Notes: a model not told the origin generated them from the letters alone. Shown: positions 1,585 through 62,684, counted from the stretch's first letter. The stretch: DNA of 64,000 nt from Scenedesmus sp. PABB004 (GCA_014905635.1 JABVCE010000005.1:62001-126000); one strand, 5' to 3'. Program-made: numbers and translations.

Positions 1585-4500
1585 CTAGGCCGGCGCGTAC
1601 GCCAGCAGCGGCGGCGGCCGCCGCGCGTCGGGCGCGGCGCCGGCGGCGGCGCGCCGCCGCCGGGGGGGCTGCCCGGCTCCTGCACGAGCCTGAAGAGCCC
1701 CGTGCCGGTGGGCATGGGGATGCCCATGATGATGCTCTCGCTCACGCCGACCACGTCGTCGGCGCGGCCGTGGATGGCCGCGTCAAAGAGGTGGTCCGCC
1801 GTCTTCTCAAAGCTCGCGCTGTGCAGCACGCTGTCTTTCATCTTGGCGATGCCAAAGCGCGTGATGCCCAGCACCTCGCCCTGGCGCGACGCAATGGAGG
1901 GCGGGGGGTGAGCGTCGAGCGTGCGCGCGGCGGCGCGGGCGGGGGGGGGGGGGGGGCGAGCGCCGCGCGCGCGCGCGCGCCACCCACCCACCCACCCACC
2001 CACCCACCCACCCACCCACGCCCACCCGCCCACCCACACCCACACCACACCACACCCGCCCGCCCGCCCACCTTGTAGGTCATGCAGTCTGCAAGCAGCA
2101 TGGTGTGGCGGTCGTCGATGGCCATGCCGTGGCTGCCCATGGTGTACTTGATCTCAGCCATCACGCTGCGCCGCGCCGCCTCAATGCCCAGCACGCGCTC
2201 CACCTCGGCCACGTGGTTGGTGCTCGTCGCCTCGCCGCGCACGCCCAGCGTGCCCATCACCGCCTGCGGTCACGCGCGCCGCGGCCGCGGCGGCGCCGCG
2301 TCAGCGCCCGGCTCGCGCGCGCGCGCGCGCAGCGCCCGCCCGCCCGCCAGCGAGCGCCCAGGAGGCCGCGGGCCCTGGGGCCGGGCCGGTCCCTGGTCCG
2401 GGGGCGCGCCTGCAGGCCGGTCCCCTCCACGAGGAGGGTGTAGGTCTCGTCCTTGTTGCGGCTGATGACGGCGCGCTCAACGCTGGGGATGCCCTGCACG
2501 ATCACCTGGCGGACGCACGGCGCGGCGCGGCGGCAGAGGTCGGGCCGGGCCGGGCAGGGCTGGGCCGGCGCGCCGCAGCGGTGCCCTGCCCTGCGCGCGC
2601 GCGCCGGCGCCCCGCCCTGTGCGCGCGCGCCTTTGGCAGCGCGGCCATGAGCTGCTCCAGCGCGAAGAGCAGCCCCTGCGACGCGCCGCCGTCGGGCGGC
2701 ACCACGAGCAGCGTGTCGCGCCCCAGCACGCGCAGCGCGTCGGGGCGCAGCTTGAGCTTGGGCGCGTCCAGCACCGCCTGCTTCACGCTCGCCGCGTCCA
2801 CGTCCAGCGCCAGCGCCGCGATGGCGGCCATGTCCAGCACCACAGCGATGTGCGCCTCGCCCAGCGCGGCCGACCCGGAGCCTGCGCGGCGGGGCGCAGG
2901 TGGGGCCGCGCGGGACCGCTCAGCGCGGTGGCGGCGGCGGCGGCCGCGCCGCGGCGCGCCGCGCGCGAGCGAGGGCGCGCCGCGCCGCGCGCGTGCTTGC
3001 TGCGCACCCGGGCGCAGCACGATGGAGATGCTCTGCGCGACCTGGCCGAGGCTGGTGCGCTCGAGGCGGCCCTTGACGAGCCGCGCGGCGACGAGGTCGG
3101 TCGGCGACGACAGCGCGACGCGCAGGATGGGCGTGCTGATCGCGCGCGCGCCGTTGATGATCTCCTTGATCCGCGGCACGCCGAGCGTCACGTTCATGCT
3201 GGCCACGCCCGCAAAGTGAAACGTCTTCAGCGTCATCTGCGTCCCAGGCTCGCCGATGCTCTGCGCGCCGACAGCGCCCACGGTCGAGCCTGCGGCGGCA
3301 GCGCGGGGGCGGGGGGCGTGTGAAGGGTGCGTCTGGTGTGTGTGTGGGGGGCGGGGGGGCGCCCGCGCGCGACACCGGGCGGCGGCGGCGCGGCGCACGC
3401 CCCAGGGCGCGCGCGGGCCCCGCCGCGGCGACGCACGCCCTCCCGCCCCCTCCCGCCTCTCCAGCACCCCTGCCCGCACGCGCGCGCGCCGGCGCGCACC
3501 CGGGTCGACGCGCTTGGCGCCGTACTTGGCGACCGCGCGCCCCACAAACGCGGCCAGCTCTGACCGCGTGAGGCCGTCGCAGCCGGCCACGTACTCCAGC
3601 ACGGCCGCGCCGGGGCCGGTCCCGCGCGCGTCCGCGGGCATACCCAGCCGCGCGCGCGTCGACGCGTAGCGGTCCACCTGGAGAAGGGGGGGGGGGGGGT
3701 TAGGGTTTTGGTTTAGGGTTTAGGGTTTAAGGGGGGGGGCAGCAGCCCGGCGGCGGCCGCGCGCGGCGCGTGAGCGGCCGCGGCAGGCGGGGGCGGCAGG
3801 CGTGCGCGCCGGCCGCCGCGCCCGCCGCCGCGCCGCCGCCGCCGCGCCCGCACCAGGCCGTGCAGGAAGGCGGCCAGGCCCTGCCGGAACGCCTTGCTCG
3901 CCCAGGGCCGCCCGCCGGCGAGCCCCGCGCGGAAGACGGCGCCGTCCCACGCACCGCGCACGTCGCCGCGCGGCGCGCGCCCCGGCGCGCCGGCCGCCGC
4001 CGCCGCGGCCGCGCTGCTGCTGCCCGCGCCGCCGCCGCCGCCGCCGCCGGGCGGCGCCTGGCCCAGCACGTCGGGCTTGCCCCCCAGGTCGTCGTCCACG
4101 GGCGCCGCGAGCTCGGGCACCGCCAGCGCTGCGTCCACCGCCGCGCGCAGCTCGCCCGGCAGCGGCACCTCCTCGCGCGGCGGGGCGCCGCTGGCGTCGC
4201 CGCCGCCGCCGCCCGCGCGCGCGCGCCGCGCGACCGCCGCCGCGTGGGCGCCGCTGAGGTTGGACCGCACCTGCGCGCCGCCGCCGCCGCCGGCGGGCCC
4301 CGTGTCGGCGCCGCGCCCGCGGGCCCCGCCGCCCCTCTCTCCCTCCCTCCCTCCCTCCCTCCCTCCCCCGCCCGCGCCGGCGCGCGCAGGCAAGGGCAGG
4401 CAGGCACACGCACCTTTGCGAGGAGGCGGGGGAAGTCGAGCGGCGCGCCGGCGGGCCCCTCCATGAGCAGCGGGTCGAGGCCGTCGTCGCCGTACGACAG

Positions 4501-7265
4501 CGACACGACGCCGCCGGCCGCGTTGCGCACGGTGGCGTCGTAGTGGACGTACAGGTCCTCCAGCGCCTGCAGGGGGGGGGAGGGGTTGAGGTGGGGTGGG
4601 GGCGTGGGTGGGGGTGTGGGTGGGTGGATGTGGAAGGTGTGTGGGTGGGTGGGCTTGGGGCGAGAGGGGGGGGGGGACGCCCCGCCGCCGCGCGCACCCC
4701 TCCCGCGCGCAGCCCCCCCCCCACACACACACACAGCCCCCCCCCCCCCCACACACACACACATAACGCACGCGCCTTCATGAGCCGGCGCGACATGTAG
4801 CCCGTCTCTGCCGTCTTGACCGCCGTGTCGACGAGGCCCTCGCGCCCCGCCATGGTGTGGAAGAAAAACTCGCTGGGGGAGAGGCCGCTGAAGAAGCTGC
4901 TCGCCACAAACCCACGCCCTGGGTGTGGGGGGAGGGGGGGGGGGGGGGGGGGGGAGGGGAGGGCGGGTGGGTGTGAGGGTGGGTGGGGCGTGTGGGGGCG
5001 TGTCTCGACACAGGTGGGTTGTGTGAAGGGCGGCGCGGCGTGACGCGCGACGCTCTTCGCGTGCGGGGGTTGATGCAGGCGGCGCCGTCCTCTGCATCAG
5101 CTGTACCAACCCCCGCACGCAAAAGAGCACGCGTGCCGCTTTGACCGCGCGGCGCCAAATCCCCCCCCCCCCCACACACACACACGTCACGCGCCGGCCC
5201 CCGCGCCCCGCGCGCACCCTCGGGCGTCTTGTCGCCGCGCGGGAAGTGGGGCAGGGTTCTGTCCTTGAAGCCGTTGAAGCAGCGCCGCCCGCCGACGCTC
5301 TGCTGGCCCACGCACGCGACCATCTGGGCGATGTTGATCGCGCTGCCCTTGCTCCCGCACTGGCTCATCACCAGCGGGCTGTTGTGCCGGTCCAGGCTCT
5401 CCATGCACACCTGGGTTAGGGTTGAGAGGAGGGGGGCGGGATGGGGTGGGGCGGGGAGCGCGGCGGCGCGCGCCGGCCGGCAGCCGCCCGCCGGCAGCCG
5501 CGCGCCGCGCCCGCGCGCCCGCGCGTGTGTCGGCCACCTTTCCGGCCGCCTCGCGAATGCCGTTGAGCACGCCCGTGACGTTTGCCTCGAGGCTCTGCTC
5601 CAGGTCGCACCCCGGCTCGAGCGCGAGCGTGCGGCGGCCGTACGCGGCGATGTAGTCCTGGCGGGGTTTAGGGGGGAGGGGGAGGGGGGCAGGGTTTAGG
5701 CGAGCGGGGGACGGGGGCGGGCCAGGAAGGGCGCGGGCGCGTGGGTGGGGCGGCAGACGGCAGGCAGCGGAGAGAGGGAGGGGCAGAGGGAGAGGGCGGC
5801 ACCTGCAGGGGGCGGGCACGTCGCGGCGGCGCGCGGCGGTGCATGTGTGGTCGTGCGGTGTGGTGCCGCACCTGGACCTCCGCGTAGCCGCTGGCCAGCG
5901 TGGCGGCCTTGTCGCGCAGCAGCGTGTCGTGGGGCGTGACGTCGTCGATGCCGATGCTAAACCCCAGCTCGCCTGGGGTTCACGGGGGGGAGGAGGGGCC
6001 ACAGGGCTCAGCAGGGGCGCAGGGCCCTGACCGCGCCGCGGGAGGGGCGCGGCGCGCGCGCCCCCCCCCCCCCCCCCCCCCCCCCCTTCTCCCCCCACAC
6101 ACGCGCCCGCACCCCCGCGCCCGCGGCGGCGCGGCCACGCAGCGCCCGCGCGCACCCATCGCGCGCGCGCTCATCTTGGCCAGCCGGCCCATGACCGCCG
6201 CCGCGGTGGCGGGGCTGAAGTCGGCTGCGAGCGCGCCAAAGAGCCCGCCCTTGGCGCCGCCGAGCGTGGCCTTGCCGAGGCGGCCGGCGAGCAGGGCGCT
6301 GCCCCTGAAGAGCACCCAGCCGTCCTTGGGGCACATGCTCTCCCCGCGCTTGCTGTACTCGCGCTCAGGCAGCTCGAGGTCGACAAACACCCTGGCGCCA
6401 GCAGGGCCGCAGGGAGGGATGGGGGGGGGGGGGGGCAGGGTCACGAGGGACTGCCGGGGGGCGCTGCGCGGCGGCGCCCAGGGTCCCCCCCCCCCTCGGG
6501 GCGCGGCGGCGGCGGCAGCGGCGGCGGCGGCGCACCGCGTCTCGGCGTTTGGGCGGACCATGACGCCAAACAGCTGCTTGCCCGTCCACAGCTCCACGGG
6601 CTTGAGCACCGCCGGCGGCGGCAGGTCGACCTGGCGCGGCGCGGCGCGCGCTGCGTCGGCGCGGCGCCAGCCCGGCGCGCGCGCGCCCGCCCCCTTCGCG
6701 CCCGCCCGCAGCCGAACTCCCGCCGCGGCGCCCCGGCGCCCCGCCGCCGCCGCGCGCGCCGGCGCAGCCCGCACGTGGTCGCGCGCGTCGCCCATGGCCG
6801 CCGCGAGCTGGCCAAAGGCTGGGCGGGTGAGGAAGACATCCTTCCCGCTCAGCAGGAAGGCGCAGGTCAGAAAGTCCTGCGTCGCCGCGATGAGCACGTC
6901 GCCGTTCTTGGGCGTCGCGAGGTTGGCCACGCTGCCCATGAGGCACAGCGCCTCCGCGCGCGCCTCCTCCGTCTGCGGCGCGCCGCGGCGCGGCGCGGGG
7001 GGGGGGGGGGGGGGACGCGGCGCGCAGGCGTGGGCCGTGAGGCGCGCGGCGGCGGCGGCGGGCAGGGGCGCGGACCGGCGCGGCGCGGCGGCGCGCGCGC
7101 GCGCGGCGGCGCGGCGCGGCGGCCCGGCCGTGCGCCCCTGGCAGGTCGACCTGGACGGCCTGCGCATCGCGCCCGTCGAGGCCGACCTGCCAGGGGGCGC
7201 ACAGCCCAAGCAGGCGCCCACGCCGCAGCCCCCGTCTAACCCTCAACCCTGCTGGAGGTGGACGT

Positions 7266-7297
<32 letters not shown>

Positions 7298-7652
7298 GCG
7301 GAGCCGGAGCCCGGCGCCTGCCGCCCTGAACCCACAACCCCGCCCTGGCCCCGCCGTGAGCCCTAAACCCCCCTCCCTGCACCCCGGCCGCGCCTGCGGG
7401 AGGTGCAGGTTCATCTCGTCGCCGTCAAAGTCGGCGTTGAACGGCGCGCACACGCACTCGTTGAACCGCAGCGTGCGACCGGGGCGCACCACCGCGCGGA
7501 ACGCCTGGCGGCGGGCGGCGCGGCGGCGCGCGCGGCGGGCGGCGGCGGGCCGGAGCGTGCGTCGGCGGGCGGTGCGCCGCGGCGCTGCGCGGCTGCGGCG
7601 GCGCGGCGCGGCGGCTGTGGGGTTTGCTGAGTGTGCCCCTGCGCGCCGCGCC

Positions 7653-7739
<87 letters not shown>

Positions 7740-7740
7740 C

Positions 7741-7818
<78 letters not shown>

Positions 7819-10800
7819 CGCGCGCCTGTATGGACACGCGGTGCAGGCTGGGCTGGCGGTTGAAGAGCACCACGTCGCCGTCCTCGAGGTGCCGCTCCAC
7901 GATATCGCCCACCTGACCGCGGCGCAAAGGGGGGGCGGGGGGTGTCGCGCGGCGCGGTGGGGCCGACAGCACGCAGCGCCGCGCAGCACGCACAGCACGC
8001 ACGGCACACGCGCCGCGCCGTGCACGGCGCCCTGCACCACACCACGGGTGGTCAGCGCCCCGCCGCGGGGTGCGTCACCTTGAGGTCTGTCGCGGCCTTG
8101 CGTCTGATCTTCTCGTCGCGCAGCCAGATGCGCGCGCCGCTGCCGTCGCCGAGGCCCACAAAGTTGGCGCCCGGCCAGGTGCCCGCGCCGTTGGCCACGC
8201 GGCCGCGCAGCTTTGCCAAGTTGTACTCGGCGACGCGCTCGGGGTACGTCAGCACGGTCGCCATGTGCACCGGCACCGCGACCTGGGGGGCGAAGGGCGG
8301 GCGGTGCGGGGCCGGGGCGCGCGGTGCGGGGAGGGAGGTGGGGCGTGAGGCGGCGGGGCGGCGAGGTGGTGCGGGCGTGGCGCGGGTGTGGCGCGGGCGC
8401 ACAGCATCGGCGCGCCTGGTGGATGGCGAGGTCTGGGTCCGGGCTGATGACGGTGCGGCCGCTGAAGTCGACGCGCTTGCCGCTGAGGTTGCCCCGGAAG
8501 CGGCCCTGCTTGCCCTTCAGGCGCTGCACAAAGCCCCTGCGCGGCACGAGATGCAGCGGGCGGGGCGTCGGCGTCGGCGCCCGAGGCAGGGCGGGCGCGC
8601 AGGCAGCCCGGCACGCGGCGCAGCGCGGCGCCGCGCGCGCCGCGCCTGAGCGGGCGCCCGGGTGCCTGGTTCTGCAGCGCCACGCCCGGAAGGTCGCTGT
8701 TGATCAGCATCGCCGCCTGCACCTGCGCGCGCGGGACGGGGAGGGGACGGAGACGGCGGGAGCCGCTCGCGGGTGAGACGCCGCCGCCGGCGCGGCGGCA
8801 GCTGCGCGCAGGCGTGCGGGCGCCGCCCGCCTCGGCCTCGTTGCGCACACTCCTTCGACACGCGCGCGCGCGGTCAGTCAGTCGCTCAGTCAGTCTCTCT
8901 CACCTGCAGGAAGTCCCAGTTCTCCATGAGCGTGTTGATGGGCAGCCCCTTCTCCAGGCCCTGGCGCAGCACGTTGTTGACCTCAATGATTTGCTGGGGG
9001 GTTGGCGGTGGTGGGGCAGGGGGGGGTGTCGGGCGGCCAAGGGAGGGAGGGCGGGGGAGCAGGGGCAGGCGCGGCGGCCGACCACCTACATGCACTCAAC
9101 AGCCCCCCCCCCACACACACACGCACACACACACAGCTCCCCCCCCCACCCGCACCCACAGCAGGCCCCCCCCCCACCCCCACCCACCCACCCACCACCC
9201 ACCATGAGCTTCATCGTCACGTCGTCCTCGTTGCTCGCGCCGTCCATCTCCACGCTCGGCCGGATCGCCACCGGCGGCACCGGCAGCACACTCAGCAGCA
9301 GGTCCTCCGGCCGGCCTGGCGCGCACGCACACACACACCGCGGCGCGCGGGGCGACGGCGTCAGCGGCGGCGCGGCGGCGGCTCCCCGCCCCGCGCCCCT
9401 TTCGACCCCCCCCCCCCTCACACACCCACCCACCCACCCGCGATGTCCAGCACCGCCAGGTCCTCCTCCGCGACCGCGCGGAACAGCCCCAGCGCGCGCA
9501 GCGGGTGCAGGTCGTCGGCTACGCGCGGCAGGCAGCCCGCGAGCGCCTCGTTGTGCCCCGCCGCCTCGGCCAGGCTCGACCGCAGCGCCTCCGCCGCGTC
9601 GGCGTTCTTGGCGTACGCCTCGTGCAGGATCTTCAGGCTCCCGCTCGCCTTCCTGCAAGCCGGCAGACGCGGCGGCGGGCGCGGGCGCGCGTGGGCGCGC
9701 GCGCGGCGGTGCGGTGGCGCCCCGCGCAGCGTCGCCGCGCGTCGCGTCTCCGCACTTGACTGTGCCGTTGTAGGCGCCGCAGTGGTGGCACACGCGCGCG
9801 CGCTTGCACGTCTCGATCACGCGCCGGAACAGCAGCTCGCGCGGCACGCGCTCGAGCTTGGGGCTGCGGAACCGCCTGCGACCGCGGCAGAGGCGGCAGC
9901 GGCGGCGGCGGCGGAGCGGTGGGCTGCGGGTGTCGCGCGCCAGGCGCTGCGCGCGCGCCCGGCGCGCTCATGGGGCGCGCCGGGCGCGCCCCGCCCCGCG
10001 CGCGCCGCCCGCCGCCCCGGCTCCCGCCCGCCGCCCGCCGCCCGCAAGCCGCCGGCGTGCCCTGCGCGCCTGATCATGCGCCGCCGCTCCTCCTCCGGCA
10101 GCAGGACGCGTGAGCAGGTCTTGCAGATGCACTGGAGCAGCTGGACGGTGTTTTTGAAGTAGCCGATGTGGAAGACGGGCAGCTCGAGCTTCAGAAACCC
10201 AAAGTGCCCCGCGCAGTCGGCGAGCTTCTGCCCGCACGTGCGGCACACCGCGGCCTTGCTGCTCACGCCCTGCGGACCCGCGACGCAGCGTGCGGCGCGG
10301 CGGTGCGCGGCCGTCAGCGGCGGCGCGCGGGGCGTGGCCGGCTGCCGCTGCACGGGCGGCGCGGCGGCGCCGCTGCCCCCCCCCGCGCCGCCGCACCAGG
10401 CGGGGGTCCAGCACGCCGTTGGGGTGCGGCACGCGCTCGGGCATCTGCGGCGCGGCACGGCGGCTGTGGGGGTGCGCGGGCGGCGGGGCGCGCGCCGCGC
10501 GGGCCCCGGGCGCCCCGCGCTGCGGCTGCGTCACGGCCCTGCCCCTCCCCACACATACACACACGCACACGCCCACCTTGTACAGTGCGCGCTCGTGGAC
10601 GTGGAAGACGCCGCAGTTGATGATGGCTTGCGGCGTCTGCAGCCCGAACCGAATCTGCTGGCTGCGGACGCGGCGGCGGCACGCTCAGCCCGGGGCGCGC
10701 GGCGGCGCGGTGGCGGCGTCGCCGCACGCGATTGCGCGCCGCGGTCGCTCACATCTTGCGGGGCACCTCGGGCGGCTTGAACGGCTCCTTGGTGAACACC

Positions 10801-10927
10801 AGCGCGCCCGCGCCCCCGCCGCCGCCCGCGCCGGGCGGGCCGCCGGCCGCGCCGGGCGGGCCGCCGCCCGCCGCGGGCGCGGCGCGGGCGGCGGCCCCAG
10901 CGGGTGCTGCAGCAGCTGCTGCTGCAT
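1585..10927 (-). CDS. RPC1: DNA-directed RNA polymerase III largest subunit (RPC1/POLR3A/NRPC1), 28 exons
   Basis: Spliced translation gives [46 protein letters not shown], catalytic [53 protein letters not shown] and the RPC1-type [31 protein letters not shown]. 27 introns traced, 8 of them GC-AG. The ATG at 10927 and the TAG at 1585-1587 each need a +1 base correction (uncorrected stop at 1539). Confidence 0.95.
3699..3730. repeat. Interstitial telomere-like (TTTAGGG)n remnant in an RPC1 intron
   Basis: GTTAGGGTTTTGGTTTAGGGTTTAGGGTTTAA. Single units also at about 5413-5424, 5664-5700, 7236-7250 and 7361-7370. Confidence 0.75.
7126..7206 (-). ncRNA. Candidate structured RNA / pre-miRNA-like hairpin in RPC1 intron 6973-7393
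   Basis: About 33-bp stem, 7126-7158 pairing with 7173-7206. Two plus-strand mismatches become G-U pairs on the RPC1 sense strand. Confidence 0.4.
7655..7817. repeat. Compound microsatellite (GT)~40 followed by (GCGT)~20, intronic
   Basis: Seen directly, inside RPC1 intron 7505-7825. Confidence 0.95.
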
Positions 10928-11716
10928 GGCGCGCCTCTGCTAGGGCGCGCTGCTGCTGTCCCGCGCCGGGCGCGAGGGCGCACCGCCGAGGGCGCCGCTG
11001 CTCAGCCGCCGCCGGCGCGGCCGCTTTGCGCCGGCGCGCGCGGCGCGCGCATGGGTCGTGCGCGAGGGCACTACTGCACCGCTACGAGGCGCGCGGGCCC
11101 GCCTGAGAGCCGCCTGGGCGCCGCCTGGGGCCGCTGCCGCCGGCGCCGCTGCTGCTCCTGCGCCGGGCGCTCTCGCGCGTCACGCGCCGGTCGCCGCCGC
11201 AGCAGGGCGCTCGTCAGTGCGGTGTGGGAGAGCAGCAGAGACTGCTGCCGGCGCGGCTGGCGCGCTGCGTGCCGCGGGTCGGCGGTGCTCGCAGCAGTGG
11301 CGTCGCCTGGGGGCCTGGCGCGTGCTCGTGGGAAAGCTGAGGAGGTAGGGCGACGCGTTGCAGCATCCACCGACGCGCCACGGGCTCTGAAGCCTTTCGC
11401 GCTTCTGCCGCCGCTCGACGAGCGCGGTCGTGTGCTGCTTCCCCGCCGCCAGCCGCTGCTGGAGCCAGACCAGGGAGCCTGCTGCCACGCCTCAGACAGC
11501 AGCGCCGCCGGGCGCCGCTGGCCGCGCCGCGCCGCGCCCGCCGCTGCTGCCCTCGGTGAGCACGCCGCGGCGCCCCGGCGCGGTCGCAGCGCACCGCCGC
11601 CGCCGCCCAGAGCCGCCGGTGCTGCACACCTGACGCTCGACCTCGCCGCCGCCGGGCAGCGCCTCCGGCCGGCGATCAGCAGCGGGCTGCGCCGCTTCCA
11701 ACCGACCGCTCGCGCG

Positions 11717-14594
11717 ATGCCGCCGCCGCCCGTCGGCGCCGGCGGCGGGCGCAGCCTGACGGCGGCGCTGGAGGCGGTGGCGCGGCGCGCGGCGCCGCTG
11801 TCGGCGCTGCTCGTGGCGATTGGGCTGGCCGGCCTGCTCGCGCTGCCGCTGCTGGCGCGGCCGATCACGTTTGACGAGAACGCGCTGCTCGCCGGCTCGG
11901 CGCGCCCCACGCTGCGGTGCGCCCCGCGCGGCCGCCCGGCGGCAGCGGCCGGCCGCCGCGCGGCCAGCCCCAGGGGCTGACCGCCCGCCCGCCCGCCCCG
12001 CCGCCCGCGCAGCGCCAAGTCGCCGGCCGCGTACGCCGCGGGCAAGGCCTTTGCCGCGGGCCTCGCGCCGGACCTGTTCGGCCCGCGCTTCACCGCGTCG
12101 CTGCAGGCGGCGCTCGCGGCGCAGCTCGGCCTGCCGGTGCACAACCACACGTTTGCGGCGGCGCGCCCCGCCGCCGGCGGCGCGCCGCGCGCGTGCACCA
12201 ACGTGCACGCCGTTCTCAGCTCGCCGCGCGGCGACGGCAAGGAGGCGCTGCTGCTCGTCACGCCGATCAACCACCAGGCCTTTGCCACGGGTGCGGCCTG
12301 CGCGACGGCGGCGCGACGGCGGCACGGCGCGGCCGGCGCGCGGCGCGCCGCTCACGCCGCCCCCGCTGCGCCGCCGCCGCCAGACTTTGAGCAGGACGCG
12401 TCGGGCGCGGGCCTGGCGCTGGCGCTGGGCTTTGCGCTGCTCGCCCACCTCGACAGCGCCGCGCCGTGGCTGGCCAAGGAGGTCGTGTGGGTGCTGCCGG
12501 ACGCGAGCTGCGGCCTCGTGGCCGCGATGGCCGCCTGGGCGGAGGCGTACCAAAACCCGGTGCGGGCGCCCGCCCGCGGCGCGCGCTGGGCGCCGACGCG
12601 TGCCCGGCGCGGGCGGCGGCGCGCGCGCCCGCCGACTCGGCGCCGCCGCCGTGTGCCGCAGGCGCTGGGCGCGCCCGGGCTCGAGGCGTTTGGCCGCGGC
12701 GGCGTGCTGCAGCAGGGCCTCGTGCTGGAGCTGCCCACGGGCACGCCCAACACGCTGCAGGCCAGCCTGGAGGGCTGGGACGGCCTGCTGCCAAAGCTGG
12801 ACACCTACTGGCTGCTGCGGTGCGCCACCCACGGCCGCGGCGCGCGCAGCACGCGCCCGTGCACGCGCGGCACGGGCGCCCGCGCAGCGCCCGCGCCGGA
12901 CTGCCGCCCGCCCGCCCGCCCGGGCGCCGCCGTGCCGCAGCTGGTACTGCTCGCACTATGTTGCCGCGCCCCTGGAGCTGGCGCAGGACGCGGGGCTGCA
13001 GCGCGCGCTGGGCGCGGGCGCCGACGCGGCGTCAGCCGCGCTCGCGCGCGCCGGCGCGACGGGCGCCGCGTCGGCGGCGGCCGCCGCGGGCGTGCTGACG
13101 CGCTTCATGGTCCGCCAGGCGCGCGGCCTGCCCACGGGCGGCCACGCGGCGCTGAAGGCGCTCGGCGTCGACGCCGCCACGCTGCGCGCGCTCGCCAAGG
13201 ACGGCGCCGGGCGCGTGCTCGGCCCGGCCGGCTTTGCGGGCGCCGACAACGCCGCGCCGCGCCCCGGCGCGCCGCACCCGCGCGGCGGCGGCCCCCCGGC
13301 GCGGCGCCGCCTGAGCGCTGACGAGGCGCTCGCGCAGCTTGGGGACGTCGCGGAGCTGGTGCTGCGCAGCTGCTCGTGCCTGATCGAGCGCTTCCACCAC
13401 TCGCTCTTCCTCTACGCCCTCACAGGCCTGGAGGCGTACGTGAGCGTGGAGCGCTACGTGGCGCCGCTGGCGGCGCTCATCCTGGTGCTGCCGCTGCAGG
13501 CGCGCCCCGGGAGGCAGGGAGGAGAGGGGGACGGGGGCAGGGCGGGCGGGCGTGCGCTGCGTGCGCGCGAGTGCCGACCCGCCCGACTCGCGCCCGGCTG
13601 CGCCGCGCAGGCGGCAGCGCTGCGCAGCACGCCGGCCCCGCCACGCGCGAGCGGCTCGGCCGGCGCAGGCGGCGCGGGCGGCGTCGGCGGCGCCAGGCGG
13701 CGCCTGGCAGCCAAGCTGGCGGGCCTGGCCGCGCGGCTGGGGCACCGGCCGGCGCCCGGCGGGGGTGGCGACGGCGCCGCGGCAGCGAGCGGTGCGCCGC
13801 CTGCGCCGCCCGCGCCGCTGGCGCCCGTGGACCTGCTGCAGCTGGCGCCTGCGGGCGAGACCGCCGCTGCGCTCGTGCAGTGGGGCGGCGCTCTCAAGCT
13901 CGTGATGGCGGTGCACGCGCTCGCGGTGGCGGCGGGCTGCGCGCTGCGGCGCGCGCCGGAGCTGCTGCCCGTGCTGCGGCTGCCGGGGCTCGCCGCCTGG
14001 CTCGCGCGCGCGGCGGCGGCGCCGGCGGACCACGCCGCGGAGCTGGGCGCGGGGTGCGGGCTCGTGCTGGCGCTGTGGGCGGTGCTGGACGGCCTGGCGT
14101 CGGCCTGCGCGGCGGGGGCGTGCGGCGGCGCCGGCGCAGCCGACGGCTGCAGCAGCAGCACCAGCAGCCGCAGCAGCCGCAGCGGCAGCCGCGCGGCGTT
14201 TGTGCGGCGCGTGCTGGTGGCGGAGCTCAGCGCCGCCGCGGCCGCGCTAGCCGCGCTGGCCTGCCTCAACTGGGCGCTCGCGTACGCCGCCTGCCTGGTG
14301 GTCGTGCCGCTGGCGCTGGGCTGCACGCCGCCGCCGGCCGAGCCGAGCGGCGCAGGCGGCGCCGCCGGGGCGCGCCGCCGCGGCCGGCGGCGCGCCGCGG
14401 CGGTGCTGGCGTGCTGCTCGCCGCCGGCGGTCGCCGCGGCGCTGGGCGTGGCGAGCGGGAGCGGCGTGGGCCCGGCCTGGCTGGCGTGGCTGGCGCTGCG
14501 CAGCAGCTGGGGCGCGTGGCTGGTGGCGTGGGGCGTGGTGCTGCCGTTCTGGGGCGTCGCCGCGTGGGCCGTGGCCGACGGCAGCGCCTGGTGA
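11717..14594 (+). CDS. GAA1: GPI transamidase subunit GAA1/GPAA1, 6 exons
   Basis: N-terminal TM helix followed by ITFDENALLAG, then NVHAVLSSPRGDGKEALLLVTP, APWLAKEVVWV, LEGWDGLLPKLD, LIERFHHSLFLY and multiple C-terminal TM helices. Confidence 0.88.
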
Positions 14595-21055: not shown

Positions 21056-24000
21056 GCGCGCGCACGAGGCCCGCCGCCGCGTCGACGACGCAGCTCACGC
21101 CGCCAAACGCGTACAGGGGCAGGCCGTCGTGCAGGCGCCCCGCGCGCGGGACAAACGCGAGCCCCGCCTCCTCCGCGTAGCGCGCGACGAGCTCGCGCAG
21201 CCCGGCTCCGGCCCCACGCCGCCCAGGCCCGCCGCGCCGCCCGGCCGCGCCGCCGGCGGCGGCGCGGCGCCGGCGCCGGCCTCGCCCGCGAGCTCCGCGC
21301 GCCACGACGGCTGCCCCGCGCCGCCGCCGCCCGCCGGCGCGGGCGCGGGCGGCGCCGGCGCCGCGACGGGCTGCCCGTCCGCGGCGGTGTGCATCATCGA
21401 CAGCGCGGCGCCGAGCGCGGCGCGCACGCGCGGGTGGTCTGCGAGGTCGGGCGGCAGCCGCGCCTTCCACGCGCTGTACCAGGCCGCGACCTCGTCGTAG
21501 TCTGGGCGCGCGCTGAGCCAGTGCGCGAGCAGGGCGTGCCAGGCGGGGAAGAAGCTGCGCTCCAGCAGCGCCGGCAGCGCGCCGCGCGGCAGCAGGCCGT
21601 CCCAGTCGAGCGCCCACTGGAACGGCTCCAGCGCCGGCGACAGCGGGTTGAGGTCCAGCTCCTGTGGGTGTTTGTGGTTTGGGGTTTGGGGGGGGGAGGC
21701 ACGTGGGTGGGTGGGGGTGGGGACGTGCTGCGGCGGCCCGTGCCCCCGCGGCGCGGCGCGGCGGCCGGGGCGCGCACGCACCGTCTCCAGCGCGTGCGCC
21801 AGCTTGGGCAGGATGCTGCGGTTCAGCAGCGCCTCCCAGTCGGCCGGCTCAAACACGGTCGCCCACGGCGCGAGCAGCAGCCGCGCGCTCGCGTCGCTCG
21901 CGTGCCACGCCGCCAGCGCGCGGCTGAGGCGGTGCCTGCGGCGGCGGTGCAGCGGGCGGCAGCGGGCGGCGGCGGTGCGGCGCGTGGTCGGTGGCTGGCG
22001 GCGGCGGCGGCGGCGCTGCCCGTCGCTGCAGCGGCTGGCAGTGGCGTGCACGGGCGCGCGCGGCTGCGCGCGCCCCCGCGGCGCCCCCGCTGCTGCGCGC
22101 ACCGTATCGTGGGGTAGACGCTGTCGAGCTGCGGCGCGAGGTGGGGCAGCCAGGGGTGCAGCCAGGCGTGGATGGGCGCCGCCTCGCGCGTCGGGTCCCA
22201 CGCCTCCACCGCGGCGGCGATGCGCGGCAGCACGAGCCCCGTGAGCAGCGCCGCCGCCGCGCCGCGCGGCAGCAATGGGCGCCAGACGTCAAACCACGCC
22301 AGCAGCGGCTCCGGCTGGCGCGGCTCCCAGTGCGTGATCGCCGACCTGGCGCCCGACGCGCGCGCGCAGAGGGGCGGGCGACGGGCGGGTGGGCGCGCGC
22401 GCGTGTGGGCGCGCTCGCGGGCGGCGCCGCGCCGCGCCGCGCGGCGGCGTCGCGCCGCGTCCGCGGTCGGCCGCTGTCGGGCGCACCGTATCGGCGGCAT
22501 GACCACCTCTGCCACCGCGACGGCGTACGCGTCCTCGCTGTCCTCCCAGCTCCCCAGCACCGCCTGCGCCGCGCCCGCGCCCTCGAGCAGGCCGCGCCAC
22601 GCGCCAAACTCGGCCGCGCCGCGGCCGGGCTCGTCGAGCGGCGCCCAGCCCGCGAGCGCGGCGCGCAGCAGCGGCAGCGCCGCGCTCAGCGCCGCCGCGG
22701 GCAGGCCATAGAGGGCATACTCCTCCGGGTAGGACGCCGCCAGGCCGGCGTAGCCCGCGTGCAGGCGCGCGAGCGCGTCGGGCCCGCGAGGCGGCGCCGC
22801 CTGCAGCGCCGCGAGGCGGGACGCGAGGCCCTCGAGCCGCTCCGACGCGCCCGCCGCGGCGGACACCTCCGCCTCGAGCCGCGCCTTCTCGGCCGCCAGC
22901 AGCGTCGCGGTGTCGGTCTGGTGCTGCAGCGCCGCGTCGAGGCGGCGCAGCTGCGCCTCGGTCAGGCTGACCAGCAGCGCCATGTTGTGCGCGAGCTCAG
23001 GCATCGGCGGCCCCGCGCCCGTGTCGGGCGCGCTGCCGTCGCCTGCGCGCCGCGGCGGCCGCGGCGGGCGGGCGCGGCACGGCGGGCGGCGCGGCGCGGC
23101 GGGTGGGCGCGGCGCGGCGGGTGGGGGCGGCGCGGCGCGGCGTGTGCGGCGTGGCGGCCGCACCCGCGCCCGCGTTGAGCTGCTCCAGGTCGGTGACCAG
23201 CCGCGCCGTGGGGCCTCGCATGTCAAGGATGGGCGCCGCCGCCAGCCCCGTCCGCGCGCCGCCGCCGCCGCCGCCGGCCGCCTCCTCCAGCACCTCCTCC
23301 GCGGTCTTGTAGGTGCGGCGCTGCCGCGCGGGGGCCGCCTTCTTCTTCCACAGCGGCGCCTGGAGGAGGCGCGGCGGCGCGGCAGCGCAGCGGAGCGGTG
23401 CGGCGCGGCGCTCGGCGGGGCGCGGCGCTCGGCGGCGTGCGCCCAGCGCGGCGAACGCCCGCGGTGGCGGCGCGCGCGCCAGCGCGCCTGGGTCTTGGCG
23501 GTCGCCTCGGCGAGCTCGGCCGCGAGCTCCGCCGCGTCGGCGTCGGGCGGCGCGTCGGGGGTCGTGTCGGGCGGCGGCGGCGGCGCGAGCTTGGCCTCCT
23601 TGAAGTCTCCAAAGCCCATGCCCATGCCCTTGGGGCGCAGCTTGGGCTCGAGCGGCTTGGCGATGCCCTGCTTGCCGCGGCCGAGGCCCTTGCCCGCCTC
23701 GTAGCCCATCTTGGAGAGCAGCTTCAGGCCGATGCCCTTGGTGTGCGCCTCAAACGCGGCAAAGCGCGGGTCGGCCGACCGCGCGGCGGCGCGCTCCGAC
23801 GCCGCGGTGACCTTGGCGGCCGCGGCCTTCTGCTTCTGCTGCGCCGCGGCCTTGATCCTGACGCGCGGCGCGCGGCCGCGCAGTGTCACCGCGGCGGCCG
23901 GGCGGCGCGGGCGGCGCGGGCGCAGAACCCGCCCCTGCCGCCCGCCGCCCCGCAGCAGCGGCGCGCGTGCGCGCGCGTGCCGCACCTGCGGCCAAACGCG

Positions 24001-24089: not shown

Positions 24090-24138
<49 letters not shown>

Positions 24139-24675: not shown

Positions 24676-24707
<32 letters not shown>

Positions 24708-24865
24708 ACGGCGCGTCGGCCGCGAGCGCGGTGCGGCTGTGTGCTGCCGCGGCTGCGGCAGCGCGCCAGCGCAGCAGCGGCGCGGCGCGCGCGCGCCTCG
24801 TAGTCGTTGTCCATGTCGAAGCGGTCCAGGTGCTGCTCCTCATCGTCGTCGACGGGCGCCGGCAT
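20973..24865 (-). CDS. TFIP11: TFIP11/STIPL/Ntr1 spliceosome disassembly factor (TIP_N, G-patch, GCFC), 8 exons
   Basis: DNDYE|GLVEVGGEFFY..RQQTKEEALYG, DYTKPVGFVS, G-patch FEAHTKGIGLKLLSKMGYEAGKGLG, PIHAWLHPWLP, VAAWYSAWK. One 1-nt frameshift near 24090. Confidence 0.92.
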
Positions 24866-31132: not shown

Positions 31133-31163
<31 letters not shown>

Positions 31164-44026: not shown

Positions 44027-51734
<7,708 letters not shown>

Positions 51735-52813: not shown

Positions 52814-55800
52814 ATGGCGCTCACTCAGCCGCGCATCTTCACCTTCATCAAGGGCCAGTCCAAGGGCGACAAGTCCATGAAGGAGCTGGTGAGCCGTCGC
52901 GCGCTGCGGGCGTGTCGCAATGCCGACCGGCAGTTGGCCGCCATGTGCGCGCGCGGCCACCATGCGCGCTGGCCGGCCGGCAGGAGTTTGCTGACCAGCT
53001 CCCGCGCGTGATGCGGCGCTCGCGCGGGCGTGCCCGGCCGCGTGCGCGGCGCACGTCGACGCCGGCACGTTTTTTGCTGTCGGGTCTGGGGGTGGGGCCG
53101 CCCCTCGCCGCCGCGCGCCATTGGCTGGCCGGCCTCACGCGCCGCATGCCGCGCTCACGCACGCCCGCCCGCCCCCGCCGCCCGCCCCGCCGCCGCGCCC
53201 GCAGCTCGGCGGCAAGGGCGCCAACCTGTGCGAGATGGCCCGCATCGGCGTCAACGTGCCCCCCGGCCTCACCGTGACCACCGAGGTCTGCCAGGAGTTC
53301 TACCGCGTCGGTGCGGCGCCCCCCGCGCGATTGCTCGCCGCCGCGCGCCTGCCGCGCCGCGCACCCCCGCGGGGCGCTCACCGCTCGCCGCCCGCCGCCC
53401 GCGCGCGCGCGCAGGCGGCGACCTGCCGCCGGGGCTCATGGACGAGGTCCGCGCCGCGGTCGCCCAGGTCGAGGCGGCGATGGGCAAGAAGTTTGGCGAC
53501 GCGGGCAACACGCTGCTCTTCAGCGTGCGCTCCGGCGCGGCGATGAGCATGCCGGGCATGATGGACACCGTGCTCAACGTCGGCCTCAACGACGCCGTCG
53601 TCGAGGGCCTCGCGGCCCAGGTCAACGAGCGCTTCGCGTGGGACTGCTACCGCCGCCTGCTCCAGGCACGCGCGCCGCCGCGCGCGCGCGGGGGGATCGG
53701 GGCGCGCAGCTCGCGCGTGCGCCGCCACCTGCGCTGCGCCGCCGCTGACGCCGCGCTGCCCGCCGCGCTCCCCGCCGCGCTGCGCGCGCGCAGATGTTTG
53801 GCGACGTCGTGCTGGGCATCGACCACGAGCTGTTTGAGCACGAGCTGGGCGCGATCAAGGCGGCCGCGGGCGCCAAGTTTGACATCGAGCTCACCGCGGC
53901 CCACCTCAAGGAGCTGGTCGCCAAGTACAAGGCCGTGTACAAGACCGCCGGCAAGGTCCTGCCCGACGACCCCTGGGAGCAGCTGCGCATGGGCATCGAC
54001 GCCGTGTTCAGGCGCGCGCGCTCGCTCGCCGCGCGCTCGCCCGCCCGCTGGCTCGCCGCCCGCGTCGCGCCGCGCGCCCGCGCCCACGCCGCGCGCGGCC
54101 GCCTCCTCCCACGCCGCCGCGGCCAGGTCGTGGAACATCCCGCGCGCGGTCAAGTACCGGGAGATCAACAAGATCACGGGGCTCAAGGGCACCGCGGTCA
54201 ACGTGCAGACCATGGTCTACGGCAACGTCAACGACGCGAGCGGCACGGGCGTGCTCTTCACGCGCAACCCCGCCAACGGCACCAACGAGCTCTACGGCGA
54301 GTTCCTCATCAACGCGCAGGGCGAGGACGTGGTGCGTGGGCGAGCCGCGGGGAGCGGGGAGGGGGGTGGTGGGAGCGGCTGCTTGCCGCGCGGCACGCGG
54401 CGGGGAGCGCGCGCGTTGTGCGCGCCGCGCGCGCGCGCCGCGCTGAGCCGCCGCGCTGAGCCGCCGCGCCCCGCGCTCCGCGCCGCAGGTGGCGGGCATC
54501 CGCACGCCGATGCCGATCGCGCTGATGAGGGAGAAGATGCCGCCCATCTACAAGGAGCTGCACGACACGGTCAAGATGCTCGAGCGCCACATGCACGACA
54601 TGCAGGCGCGCGCCGCGCACTGGGGCCGGGCCGCGGGGCGTGCGGCGGCGAGGCGGCAGGGCGCGCAGGCGCGGGCGCCGACCCGCCACGCCGCGCCCCG
54701 ATGGCCGCGCAGGACACCGAGTTCACGGTGCAGGACGGCACGCTGTTCATGCTGCAGACGCGCAACGGCAAGCGCACCGGCCCCGCGGCGCTCAAGATCG
54801 CGATCGACCTGGAGGCCGAGGTGCGGCGCGCAGGGCGCGCGGGCAGGGGCCGCGCCGCCTGCAGGGCCCGCGCGCCGCTGCGCGCTGCGCACGCCAGCTC
54901 CGCCCGCGCGCGCGCCGCACTCACGCGCCCCCTGCTCTCGCACCCGCCCGCGCCTGCCGCGCCCGCGTCAGGGCCTGGTCGACAGCGACGCGGCGGTGAT
55001 GCTGGTGGAGCCGCGCCACCTGGACCAGCTGCTGCACCCGATGTTTGAGAATGAGAAGGCCTACCAGCGCGACGTCATCACCAAGGGCCTCGGCGCCTCG
55101 CCCGGCGCGGCGGTGGGCAAGCTCGTGTTCACCGCCGAGGACGCGGAGGCGTGGAAGGCCAAGGGCGAGGCCGTCATCCTCTGCCGCCAGGAGACGAGCC
55201 CCGAGGACGTCGGCGGCATGCACGCGGCGGAGGGCATCCTCACCAGCCGCGGCGGCATGACCAGCCACGCCGCCGTCGTCGCGCGCGGGTGGGGCAAGCC
55301 CTGCTGCTGCGGGTGCGAGGAGCTCATCGTCGACGCGTTTGCCAAGACGCTCAAGGCACCGGTGAGGGGGGAGGACGCGGGGGCGCTGCGCGCGCGGCGG
55401 CCAGGGCGCGCGGAGGCGCTGCGTGCAGTGCAGCGTGCCCGCTGCGCCCGCTGCGCCCGCGCGGCGGCTCACGCCCGCGCCGCGCGTCGCGCGTCGCGCC
55501 GCCGCGCAGAACGGCGCGGTGCTGAAGGAGGGCGACTGGGTGAGCCTGAACGGCGTGACGGGCGAGGTCATCAAGGGCGCGCAGCCGGTGAAGAAGCCTG
55601 CGCTCACGGGCGACCTCGGGACGTTCATGAAGTGGGTCGACGCCAAGCGCCGCCTGCGCGTGCTCACCAACGCCGACACGCCCGAGGACGCCAAGGCGGC
55701 CATCGCCAACGGCGCGCAGGGCATCGGGCTCACGCGCACGGAGCACATGTTCTTCGCGACGCACCAGCGCATCGCCGCCGTGCGCCGCATGATCGCCGCG

Positions 55801-57389
55801 GTCGAGCTCGGCTCCCCCGCCGCCGCCGAGGCGCTGCGCGAGCTCCAGGGCTACCAGACCCAGGCGCGTGACGCCGCCGCCCGCGCGCCGGGAGCGCAGC
55901 GCGCGCGCCGGGAGCGCAGCGCGCGCACAGCGAGCGCAGCGCGCGCGCCGCCTGCGCGCGACCCGGGCGCGCAGCGCGCGCGCCGCCTGCCGCGCCCGCC
56001 GCCGCCGGCTCACCCCCGCGCCCCGCCTCGCCCCGCGCCGCCGCCCCGCTCTCTCTGTGCCCGCAGGACTTTGAGGGCATCTTCACCGCGATGGACGGCT
56101 TCCCCGTGACCATCCGCCTGCTCGACCCGCCGCTGCACGAGTTCCTGCCCCAGGAGGGCCCCGCGCTGAAGAAGCTCTGCGAGCAGCTCGCGCAGGAGCT
56201 GGGCAGCGACACCGAGACCATCACGCGCCGCCTCGAGGGCCTGCACGAGGCCAACCCCATGATGGGCCTGCGCGGCTGCCGCCTCGGCACGGTGCACCCC
56301 GAGATCACAGACATGCAGGTGCGGGTGCCCTCATCAGCGCCCCGCGCCCCGCCCTGCGCGCCCGCCTCGCTCCTGCTCCCGCGCCCGCGCTCGCCCGCGG
56401 CGGCAGGAGCGGAAGCTGCAGCAGCCCCGCGCTCACGCGCTCGCGCCGCTCCCGCCGCCGCTCCCGCCAGGTGCGCGCGATCATCACGGCCGCGATCAAC
56501 GTGTCCAAGGCGGGCGTCGCGGTGCACCCGCACATCATGATCCCCCTGGTCGGCATCGAGGACGAGCTCATCGGCCAGGCCAAGATCGTGAACGACGTCG
56601 CGGCGCAGGTCTTTGCCGCGACCGGGGCCAAGGTCGACTACAAGGTGCGGCGGCGGGCGACCCGGCCGCGCGCGCGAGCGCCGCGCCGCGGCGGGGCGGG
56701 GGGGGCCGGCCGGGGAACCAGCGGGCTAGCAGCTGTGGCCGCAGCCGCCGCGGCTGGCGCGGGCTCAGGGCGCGGGCTCACGCGCGCCGCACCCCGCCGC
56801 CGCGCAGGTCGGCACGATGATCGAGGTGCCGCGCGGCGCGCTGCGCGCGGGCGACCTCGCGCGCACCGCCGAGTTCTTCTCCTTTGGCACCAACGACCTC
56901 ACCCAGATGACCTTTGGCATCAGCCGCGACGACGCCCAGGCACGCGCGCGCGCGGCGGGGCGGCAGGGAGGAGGGCCCTAGGCGCGGCGCGCGCGCGGCG
57001 GCGGCGCCGCGCGCCGGGTCGGCCCGACGCGCCCCCGCGCCCCGACCTCACCCCGTCCCCGGCCCCTCTGCCCCCGCGCTCCCTCCGCCGCGCAGGCCAA
57101 GTTCCTGCAGTTTTACACCAAGCACGGCCTGCTCGCGCTGGACCCCTTTGAGACGGTCGACGCGGTCGGCGTGGGCGAGCTCATCCGCCTCGCGGCCGCG
57201 CGCGGCCGCGCGACGCGCCCGGGCATCGAGCTCGGCGTGTGCGGCGAGCACGGCGGCGACCCCAAGTCGATCGAGCTGTTTGAGGATGTGGGCCTCGACT
57301 ACGTGTCGTGCAGCCCCCTGCGCGTCCCCATCGCGCGCCTCGCCGCCGCGCAGGCCTTCCTCAAGGCCAAGAAGGCCGGCAAGGCCTGA
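52814..57389 (+). CDS. PPDK: Pyruvate,phosphate dikinase, 13 exons, no transit peptide in this model
   Basis: [68 protein letters not shown] (regulatory Thr, catalytic His), [34 protein letters not shown]. 5 of 12 introns are GC-AG. Confidence 0.97.
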
Positions 57390-61170: not shown

Positions 61171-62684
61171 TCACTGGCGCAGCTGCTGCAGCTGCGCCAC
61201 CATCGCCTGCAGCTGCTCCAGGCGCGCCGTCAGCGCCGCCATGCGCGCGACCGACACGGGCGAGCCGCCCTCCTGCGCCGCGTCGCCGCCGCTCGGCGCG
61301 GCGGCGGCGAGGGGCGCCACGGGCGCCACGGGCGCTGCCGGCGGCGGCGGCGGGGGGCTGCGCCCCGTCAGCGCCGCCGCGAGCTCGGCGTGCAGCTCCT
61401 CCTGCAGCACCGCCGCGACCTCGTCCTCGGTGGGGCCGGCCAGGCCCAGGCGCGCGCACCAGTTGTGCGCCGCGCGCGCCGCGGCGGCGGACGCCGCGCC
61501 GTACTGGCGCTCCGCCAGCAGCTCCATGCCGAGCGCGGCGGCGGCGCTCCAGCCGGGGCCGGCCGCCTCGCGCGCGAGGTTGGCCGACGCGCCGCGCGCC
61601 AGGCCGGGCAGCACGACCGCCGAGTCGGAGCACGCGTCGGAGAGGTGCCGCACGATGCCTGGCAGCCGGGCCGCCTCGGCCCACTCGCCGCAGGGCGCCG
61701 ACTGCGCCGCGGGCGCGCCGGCCCCCGCGCGCGCCGGCTCGCACTCCATGTGCGCGCCCGACACCCACGCCTCGGCCAGCATCGCCGCGGCGTCCGCGAC
61801 CGTCAGGCTGCCGCTGCTCACCGGCGGCGCGGCGACCGCGCTCGCCACGGGCGCCGCCGGCAGGCTCCGCGTGCGGCACAGCGGGAGCGGGAGCGGCAGC
61901 TCCGCCCACGCCGCGGGCGGCCCGGCCACGTCGCAGCGGCTGCCCGCCGCCGCGCTGCAGGCGGGGCCCTCTGAGGCCGCCTCGCTGGCCGCGGCGGCCG
62001 GCGGGGCGGCCGCCTCGGGCGACGCCGCGCCGCCGCGCCGCAGGCGGCCGCCCGCCCTCCTCGCGCCGCGCCTGGTCGCGAGCGCGTCGGGGTCGGCCGC
62101 CGTGTCGGCGCAGCGCCGCTTCTCGAGGCTGGACCGGCAGCTCCTGCGGGCGGGCGGGGGCGACGGCTCGGTCGGTCGGCGCGCGGCGCCGCGGCCGCCC
62201 TGCCCGTAGGCGCGGCCGCCGCCCGCGACGCCCCGCGCGGCTGCCGCCGCCGGCGCCGCCGCCGCGCACCGCTTGGTGCCCTGGAAGCTCTGCAGCGTCT
62301 CCAGCTTGCCGCACTGCTGGCAGAAGCGGTACAGCTGCGCGCCGCGCCCCTCGCACATCACCGCGTCGGCCTGCGCAGCGAGGCGGGGCGGGGCGCGGGG
62401 CGCGGGGCGTGAGCGGGCGGCGATGGCGGCCAGGCGCCCCTGGCCGGCGCCGGCGCGCGGCGCGCGGTCGCCGCGCGCGCCTTGAGGTGCGCCGGGCAGA
62501 CGCGCTTCTTGAGGCAGTACGCTCGTCCCACGGCCGTCAGGTCGACGGAGCAGCCCACGATCTTGCAGCGCTTGCTCGCGCACGGCGCTGGCGGCGCGGC
62601 CCGGAGCGCCGCCGCCGCCGGCGAGGACGGCGGCGCCGCCGACCGCGCCCCCGCGCCGCTGCCGCTGGGCTCCGGGCTCGACAT
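61171..62684 (-). CDS. SBP (SQUAMOSA promoter-binding) domain transcription factor, 3 exons
   Basis: CKIVGCSVDL..YCLKKRVCPAHLK|ADAV..RFCQQCGKLETLQSFQGTKR|SCRSSLEKRR. First intron (62371-62480) is GC-AG. Confidence 0.88.

Follow-up and report, generated by a model that had tools for sequence, protein, structure and literature searches.

Abundant GC-AG introns in four conserved genes of the extremely GC-rich chlorophyte Scenedesmus sp. PABB004

Introns that begin with GT and end with AG account for 97.9–98.7% of the introns of plants, animals and fungi (PMC7072748), and GC-AG introns make up about 1% in most eukaryotes; a sequence-only reading of the DNA analyzed here had this baseline right but missed the published algae in which GC donors are frequent. 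We examined such introns in a 64-kb stretch of Scenedesmus sp. PABB004 (GCA_014905635.1, JABVCE010000005.1:62001-126000; the whole stretch is referred to below as the window). Four of its genes, coding for the largest subunit of RNA polymerase III (RPC1), pyruvate, phosphate dikinase (PPDK), TFIP11 and a trehalase, yielded 55 robust introns, 38 with a GT donor and 17 with a GC donor (31% GC). Judged from homology, the abundance of GC-AG introns in these four genes is confirmed. The organism is a chlorophyte of extreme GC content, and we propose, with a probability of roughly 0.8, that these are ordinary U2-type (major-spliceosome) introns in which C has often taken the place of T at the second intron position (+2).

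Elevated GC-donor usage is already known in GC-rich algae, and the window probably presents an added case rather than a new mechanism. In the haptophyte Emiliania huxleyi, GC donors make up 56–65% of the checked sets, a share that its authors put down to a genome of 65% GC (Feldmesser et al. 2014, PMC4028052). Like the organism studied here, it is a high-GC alga with many GC donors, AG acceptors, introns missed by gene predictors and an explanation from GC content; unlike in the window, GC is its majority donor and was verified by RNA, whereas here GC is the minority state (17/55), is confined to AG-ending exons and is read from homology. The stramenopiles Aureococcus anophagefferens and Pelagomonas calceolata have about 14–17% predicted GC-AG introns, likewise ascribed to high genomic GC; these numbers are prediction-based, and the available text of the source makes no mention of a context rule (bioRxiv 10.1101/2024.10.30.620910). 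Both the E. huxleyi and the pelagophyte explanations offer a precedent for the reading favored here. Among green algae, the prasinophyte Micromonas pusilla CCMP1545 has a similar share, GC standing at 25.6% of all its donors, at 43.5% of those of introner introns and at 9.7% of those of regular ones; D-IE1 introns account for 79% of its GC donors, the sister species reaches 1.5%, and the authors suggest that selection may oppose such donors (van Baren et al. 2016, PMC4815162). In contrast to that introner-linked situation, the GC-AG introns of the window lack a repeat family, occur at conserved positions and reach a higher share among regular introns.

The comparison extends to lineages in which GC donors are rare or go unmentioned. 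Human GC donors have stronger flanking signals (PMC3167603), and in animals and plants the usual U2-type GC-AG introns match the donor consensus more strongly at the other positions; the demand for an exonic AG described below is the same kind of compensation (PMC7072748, PMC3167603). However, the frequency in the window is about 30-fold higher, and positions +3 to +5 read GCG rather than RAG; the GC content of splice sites has also been found to correlate weakly with that of the genome (PMC7072748). The green alga Ostreococcus lucimarinus has the donor consensus GTGCGTG (Irimia and Roy 2008, PMC2483917) and shares the GCG core at +3 to +5, but its consensus begins with GT and GC-AG introns go unmentioned in the available text. 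Genomes above 70% GC are known among Sphaeropleales (PMC12571836), and for this order, as for the rest of the core chlorophytes, a search of the main texts of open-access papers and preprints gave no report of abundant GC donors. With the window, a core chlorophyte would join the few lineages in which such donors are frequent, a set that permits comparative tests of whether splice sites drift with base composition or need a change of the machinery.

Introns were located with a protein-to-genome spliced aligner that considers all three intron phases, makes an AG acceptor mandatory and charges a GC donor a penalty of 2. Full models were built for RPC1, PPDK, TFIP11 and trehalase, and an intron was taken as robust if different homologs returned it repeatedly or if its surroundings aligned well. 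For RPC1, the window's own public protein model (P0002, 100% identical) maps exactly onto the minus strand, each of its 30 junctions having a single G(T/C)-AG placement; 27 of these lie within RPC1 proper and 8 are GC-AG. Public annotation thus already employs all eight GC introns of this gene, and spliced alignment of four homologs, P0006, P0007, P0010 and P0017, recovers the same eight every time. In the lines below, a slash separates the exon end (lower case) from the intron start (upper case), and fractions give the homologs that are contiguous over the junction:
1602..10955, minus strand: RPC1 (largest subunit of RNA polymerase III), with 8 GC-AG introns among 27, from exact mapping of P0002 and spliced alignment of four homologs
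2264..2409, minus strand: RPC1 GC-AG intron, cag/GCGCGC, phase 0; 36/119 homologs
2506..2630, minus strand: RPC1 GC-AG intron, aag/GCGCGC, phase 0; 13/119 homologs
4567..4775, minus strand: RPC1 GC-AG intron, aag/GCGCGT, phase 0, joining RLMK to ALED; 74/119 homologs
6973..7393, minus strand: RPC1 GC-AG intron, cag/GCGCGG, phase 0, joining HLPQ to TEEA; 65/119 homologs
7505..7825, minus strand: RPC1 GC-AG intron, cag/GCGCGC, phase 0; 65/119 homologs
8283..8415, minus strand: RPC1 GC-AG intron, cag/GCGCGC, phase 0; 38/119 homologs
8537..8645, minus strand: RPC1 GC-AG intron, cag/GCGCGG, phase 2; 34/119 homologs
9876..10069, minus strand: RPC1 GC-AG intron, cag/GCGCGC, phase 2; 23/119 homologs

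In PPDK, all 12 introns were obtained with four of five homologs, the fifth (P0133) giving 11 of them and one spurious GC intron in place of a GT intron. The alignments to P0121, P0122, P0124 and P0178 are gapless, and P0121 is probably transcript-derived, because its 891 residues are encoded on a contig of 2784 bases:
52814..57386, plus strand: PPDK (pyruvate, phosphate dikinase), with 5 GC-AG introns among 12, from gapless spliced alignment to the four homologs just named
53666..53793, plus strand: PPDK GC-AG intron, cag/GCACGC, phase 0; a 17-residue insertion if only GT donors are allowed; 102/120 homologs
54012..54126, plus strand: PPDK GC-AG intron, cag/GCGCGC, phase 2; 91/120 homologs
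54606..54712, plus strand: PPDK GC-AG intron, cag/GCGCGC, phase 0, joining DMQ to DTEF; 12 conserved residues lost under GT-only; 64/120 homologs
55864..56066, plus strand: PPDK GC-AG intron, cag/GCGCGT, phase 0, from spliced alignment
56940..57095, plus strand: PPDK GC-AG intron, cag/GCACGC, phase 0; a 26-residue insertion including a stop under GT-only; 91/120 homologs

TFIP11 has seven robust introns, two of them GC-AG, placed with its sole homolog, P0241; trehalase has nine, and both of its GC-AG introns were found with 7/7 homologs:
23360..23487, minus strand: TFIP11 GC-AG intron, cag/GCGCGC, phase 0, from the P0241 alignment; region garbled under GT-only
24674..24796, minus strand: TFIP11 GC-AG intron, gag/GCGCGC, phase 0; 41 extra residues read through under GT-only
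36581..36691, minus strand: trehalase GC-AG intron, cag/GCGCGG, phase 0; 7/7 homologs; relatives have an intron with GT at this position
37022..37162, minus strand: trehalase GC-AG intron, cag/GCGCGC, phase 2; 7/7 homologs

These models bear out what had been claimed from the sequence alone for the four genes: 8 of 27 RPC1 introns with a GC donor, at coordinates now recovered both by the P0002 mapping and with 4/4 homologs; 5 of 12 in PPDK, whose start positions are returned by spliced alignment; 2 of 7 in TFIP11, on one homolog; and 2 of 9 in trehalase, on seven of seven. Altogether, 18 of the 19 GC-AG introns claimed are supported, 17 of them by spliced alignment at the very coordinates given, and two more were gained in a leucine-rich-repeat (LRR) gene. 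The pattern AG/GC(G/A)CG, with AG at the intron end, is present on the proper strand at every claimed site. The GC share in the four fully modelled genes (31%) compares with the 22% (19 of 88 introns in 14 genes) of the earlier count.

Every one of the 55 robust introns ends in AG, and in all 55 the acceptor is CAG. When all equivalent shifts of the 17 GC introns are listed, no second G(T/C)-AG placement yields an identical mRNA for any of them, and hence no GT-AG one. In twelve of the 17 the length is not a multiple of 3, and these therefore cannot be retained coding sequence and must be removed. Restricting the aligner to GT donors lowers the score by 227 in PPDK (from 4072 to 3845 with P0121), by 343–401 in RPC1 (401, 398, 352 and 343 across the four homologs), by 226 in TFIP11 (2936 versus 2710) and by 55–75 in trehalase. 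The resulting GT-only models contain insertions, lose conserved residues and in one case run into a stop within the frame; in PPDK, the five sites turn into insertions of 17–29 residues, deletions that take away 2 and 12 conserved residues, and a single stop-containing read-through.

Several other calls were discarded. In RPC1 these were short, variable calls in the low-complexity insert at 3851–4270 and other one-off calls; in PPDK, a call at 55392–55527 that appears with P0133 only; in TFIP11, the calls at 24076–24155 and 21192–21235, in glycine-rich or poorly aligned stretches; and in trehalase, many one-homolog calls such as 36199–362xx in a poly-Q stretch. All were treated as artefacts. 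Metagenome relatives of PPDK were also set aside as a source of orthologous introns, the best 80 loci being at most 69% identical and apparently prokaryotic.

Three observations on RPC1 stand apart from its GC donors. The P0002 model has 1888 residues versus about 1500 in homologs, its additional C-terminal part (approximately residues 1541–1888) mapping on the minus strand to exons at 1210–1260, 808–927 and 2–187, beyond the normal end of RPC1; this looks like a fusion with a neighboring gene or an over-extended model. P0014, annotated as a partial RPC1 of a named Chlamydomonas species, diverges from the homologs exactly at the 2264–2409 junction, where its next residue is an alanine; this could be read-through into a GC-donor intron or simply divergence. 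The intron at 7505–7825 contains a long (GT)n followed by a (GTGC)n microsatellite at 7660–7820.

The sequence around the donors follows a strict rule. An exonic AG (A at −2, G at −1) precedes 17/17 GC donors, as had been stated in the sequence-only reading, versus 15/38 GT donors (Fisher p = 1.2e-5); conversely, the donor is GC at 17 of 32 AG-ending exons and at none of the 23 others. In RPC1, AG-ending donors divide into 8 GC and 7 GT, in keeping with the earlier estimate of about half. The intronic side is similarly constrained, with C at +4 and G at +5 in all 17 GC donors (27/38 and 35/38 GT donors, respectively), and with a +3 to +5 core of GCG in 15 and ACG in 2 of them, against GCG in 26/38 GT donors. 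Among AG-ending exons, C at −3 is found before 14/17 GC and 6/15 GT donors (p = 0.027). The GC introns are thus nearer to the consensus than the GT introns at donor positions other than +2. Within the spans of the four genes, coding strand only, AG/GCGCG occurs 21 times, 15 of them as a donor, and AG/GTGVG 16 times, 12 of them as a donor, the two being about equal in donor specificity; in DNA so poor in A and T, much of the donor signal resides in the exonic AG.

The canonical 5′ end of U1 was used as the reference for counting base pairs, of which 5–7 are possible with the GC donors and 5–9 with the GT donors, counts that are compatible with a pairing threshold. U12-type introns are recognized by an extended ATCC-like donor box; none of the 17 GC donors, all of the form GC(G/A)CG, resembles it. 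Other features are common to both classes: the first base of the downstream exon is G in 45 of the 55 robust introns, a T-rich tract is absent, and boxes resembling CTGAC, CTCAC or CTGAG lie about 25–50 bases upstream of the acceptor in many introns, GC and GT alike.

The base composition of the window is extreme. All of its 4-kb bins have 75.4–81.5% GC, introns (84.9%) exceed exons (73.8%), and the GC content at third codon positions (GC3) of PPDK is 0.98. The window represents chlorophyte nuclear DNA, the nearest homologs with names being those of Scenedesmus and Tetradesmus: the top named matches are Tetradesmus obliquus (84%) and Chlamydomonas (83%) for RPC1, over the exons found by homology, Scenedesmus sp. 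(95%) for PPDK and Tetradesmus obliquus for TFIP11. An Rfam scan of the window gave no match at the gathering score, and genes for U1, U5 and U6 were not found within it.

The share of C among pyrimidines, C/(C+T), is 0.861 at interior intron bases on the coding strand, and this gives the frequency of C to be expected at +2 if that position were free. Against this expectation, C at +2 is depleted after AG (17/32; p = 7e-6) and is missing from the non-AG contexts (0/23; binomial p = 2e-20). As C stays below about 86% in both contexts, T is still favored in each: outside the AG context the preference for T is strong, while after AG it would be mild, with a log odds ratio of about −1.7 on a simple mutation–selection reading.

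A view of the donor in other genomes comes from short open reading frames (ORFs) on long contigs of relatives, which leave the trehalase exon at the residue where it ends in the window and continue into the intron. Where the phase is 0, positions +1 to +3 form the first codon read into the intron, with valine denoting GT and alanine GC. At the trehalase intron 36581–36691, valine is found in 11 of 12 read-through relatives and alanine in one, P0246, a GC-rich relative that resembles the window in this respect; its GC donor may be either a shared or a recurrent change. Two PPDK introns have T at +2 in one relative each: P0125, the genomic ORF of a close relative, has valine at the intron orthologous to 55864, and P0190 has a cysteine codon after the split arginine at the 54012 intron, which implies T. 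Because their positions are common to relatives, these introns are old. GT is the majority state, and C at +2 would most simply be derived in this lineage.

The reading that we favor would combine these elements as follows. A very strong GC-biased substitution process may drive T to C everywhere; at +2 the change would survive only in a full-strength donor, in which the exon ends in (C)AG and the intron has a purine at +3, C at +4 and G at both +1 and +5, while in weaker contexts C at +2 would be purged by selection. The effective donor in the full-strength context might then be written AG/GYGCG, about half of such donors carrying C. The interpretation offered with the sequence-only reading is supported in one part and not in the other. 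Its proposal that GC pressure drives T to C at +2 wherever an exonic AG compensates is supported by the contrast between 17/32 and 0/23, the C/(C+T) of 0.861, the GC3 of 0.98 and the valine in 11 of 12 relatives; its adapted spliceosome is not needed as an explanation and did not find support, given the absence of C from the 23 non-AG contexts and the favoring of T even after AG. We infer both the direction and the cause of the +2 change; a normal spliceosome probably removes these GC-AG introns, and the GC-donor fraction of the window may hold genome-wide.

The confinement of GC to donors after AG offers a natural gauge of the selection that remains for T at +2 under extreme GC pressure. There is also a practical side, in that gene finders restricted to GT would mis-model roughly one-third of the introns in such genomes. 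As the introns are often open in frame, such annotation errors stay hidden. Frames in the window run open through introns (565 stop-free stretches of at least 60 codons over the six frames of the whole window), and 15 of the 55 robust introns have lengths divisible by 3, so that retained introns or missed splice sites need not break an ORF.

Several points weigh against the reading of ordinary introns with a tolerated T-to-C change. The introns are read here from protein homology, and the full models cover just four genes, all conserved ones, of a single 64-kb window. The choice of robust introns is a matter of judgement, and the TFIP11 set comes from one homolog. When other dinucleotides were allowed as decoy donors, they regained 46–96% of the gain in score obtained with GC; the best decoy, CG, gave 167 versus 227 for GC in PPDK, 297 versus 401 in RPC1, 217 versus 226 in TFIP11 and 26 versus 57 in trehalase. 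GC gave the largest gain in 5/5 runs, but the control implies that what homology proves at each site is an intron lacking any usable GT donor and not the exact GC boundary, which follows because an AG acceptor and a G at +1 are also demanded. Divergent homologs, moreover, cause the aligner to produce one-off spurious GC introns. GC content alone does not set the GC-donor fraction, as E. huxleyi has about 60% GC donors at 65% GC, as against 31% here at about 78% GC (PMC4028052). The ancestral status of GT is a majority argument from a count of relatives. Finally, pairing with U1 explains the AG rule only in part, because 8 of the 23 GT donors outside the AG context would keep at least 6 pairs without +2.

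Of the departures from this reading, the most far-reaching would make +2 an almost free pyrimidine in a re-weighted AG/GYGCG code in which the scarce bases A and T are informative at −2 instead of +2, backed by a change in U1, U5, U6 or a 5′-splice-site-binding protein, and would give this lineage, genome-wide, the highest GC-donor share known among regular introns (those outside introner elements) in green plants and algae. We consider this unlikely. A more limited version, that the spliceosome (the U1 5′ end, the U6 ACAGA box, the U5 loop or an associated protein) has adapted to G(U/C)GCG and reads C at +2 like U, appears quite unlikely as well. It would account for the high GC fraction (17/55), for AG/GCGCG predicting a donor as well as AG/GTGVG does (15/21 versus 12/16) and for a +3 to +5 core that deviates from the textbook RAG. 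However, a general acceptance of C at +2 leads one to expect C in the non-AG contexts too, and none is seen there (0/23) despite an intronic C/(C+T) of 0.861; T is preferred even after AG (17/32, p = 7e-6), and the GTGCG core is also that of Ostreococcus, where it goes with GT donors (PMC2483917). So strict a dependence on AG agrees with compensation of the ordinary kind and speaks against any re-tuning of the spliceosome.

It is very improbable that the GC donors are an artefact, whether of assembly or polishing errors at +2 or of true junctions lying elsewhere, at a nearby GT or another non-canonical boundary. GC is the commonest dinucleotide of the window, at 19–23% of positions, and can be found near almost any point; as a consequence, an aligner that is allowed GC donors invents some introns, and ours did produce spurious ones. 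Yet GT-only models break the conserved protein in every case, all 17 sites have the same 7–8-base context and a CAG acceptor, which is unlike random errors, and the same eight RPC1 sites were chosen independently by the public annotation. The alanine of P0246 at the trehalase intron is a further instance of a GC donor, in an independent relative.

Least credible is a recently spread repetitive intron family, such as the introner elements of Micromonas pusilla CCMP1545 (PMC4815162), since, for all that this precedent and the GCGCG start common to the GC introns might suggest it, an all-against-all comparison of the 55 robust introns detected no shared repeat family but only low-complexity GC-rich matches that link GC and GT introns alike (the best pair being 83% identical over 89 low-complexity bases), and at least three of the GC introns lie at positions common to relatives and are hence old.

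Outside the four modelled genes, the sequence-only reading had placed GC-AG introns in an SBP-domain gene, in GAA1 and, at least four of them, in the LRR gene:
62371..62480, minus strand: SBP-domain gene GC-AG intron, aag/GCGCGC; flanking exons match the contiguous Pfam SBP positions 1–28 and 31–59
47224..47328, plus strand: LRR gene GC-AG intron, aag/GCGCGG; the 28-residue LRR period is kept by this acceptor alone (repeat-period basis)
47618..47867, plus strand: LRR gene GC-AG intron, aag/GCGCGG; the 28-residue LRR period is again kept by this acceptor alone, on the same basis
46323, 46731, 46893 and 48648: candidate GC donors of the LRR gene; 44715: a further candidate; upstream frames inspected in each case
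13500..13610, plus strand: GAA1 candidate GC-AG intron, cag/GCGCGC motif; 111 nucleotides, in frame and open

The SBP intron is supported indirectly by the coordinates of the Pfam profile and by the zinc ligands, as all six in-frame GT-AG alternatives (6/6) delete C-x2-H ligands. For the LRR gene, the 28-residue repeat period sustains two of the introns claimed (47224–47328 and 47618–47867), and the others keep the status of candidates. At the GAA1 candidate, the upstream exon corresponds to Pfam Gaa1 positions 206–264, and the downstream exon has no Pfam match. The sequence AGGC(G/A)CG occurs at 85 sites on both strands of the window, 17 of which are those of the verified set; the sites include 13119, 15100, 15428, 29051, 29589, 39470, 40684, 41389, 48648, 59224 and 62071. 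Several of the sites lie on the coding strand of the GAA1, S10 carboxypeptidase, syntaxin, LRR and SBP genes and may be further GC donors.

Two other features of the window may be recorded. A 701-codon open frame at 16064–18166 (plus strand) contains an RWP-RK domain (Pfam E = 3.9e-21) embedded in long, low-complexity sequence rich in alanine, glycine and glutamine. Heptamers resembling plant-type telomere repeats (TTTAGGG/CCCTAAA), partly in tandem, occur at 3692–3730, 5667, 7361 and 28526, some of them within introns of RPC1.

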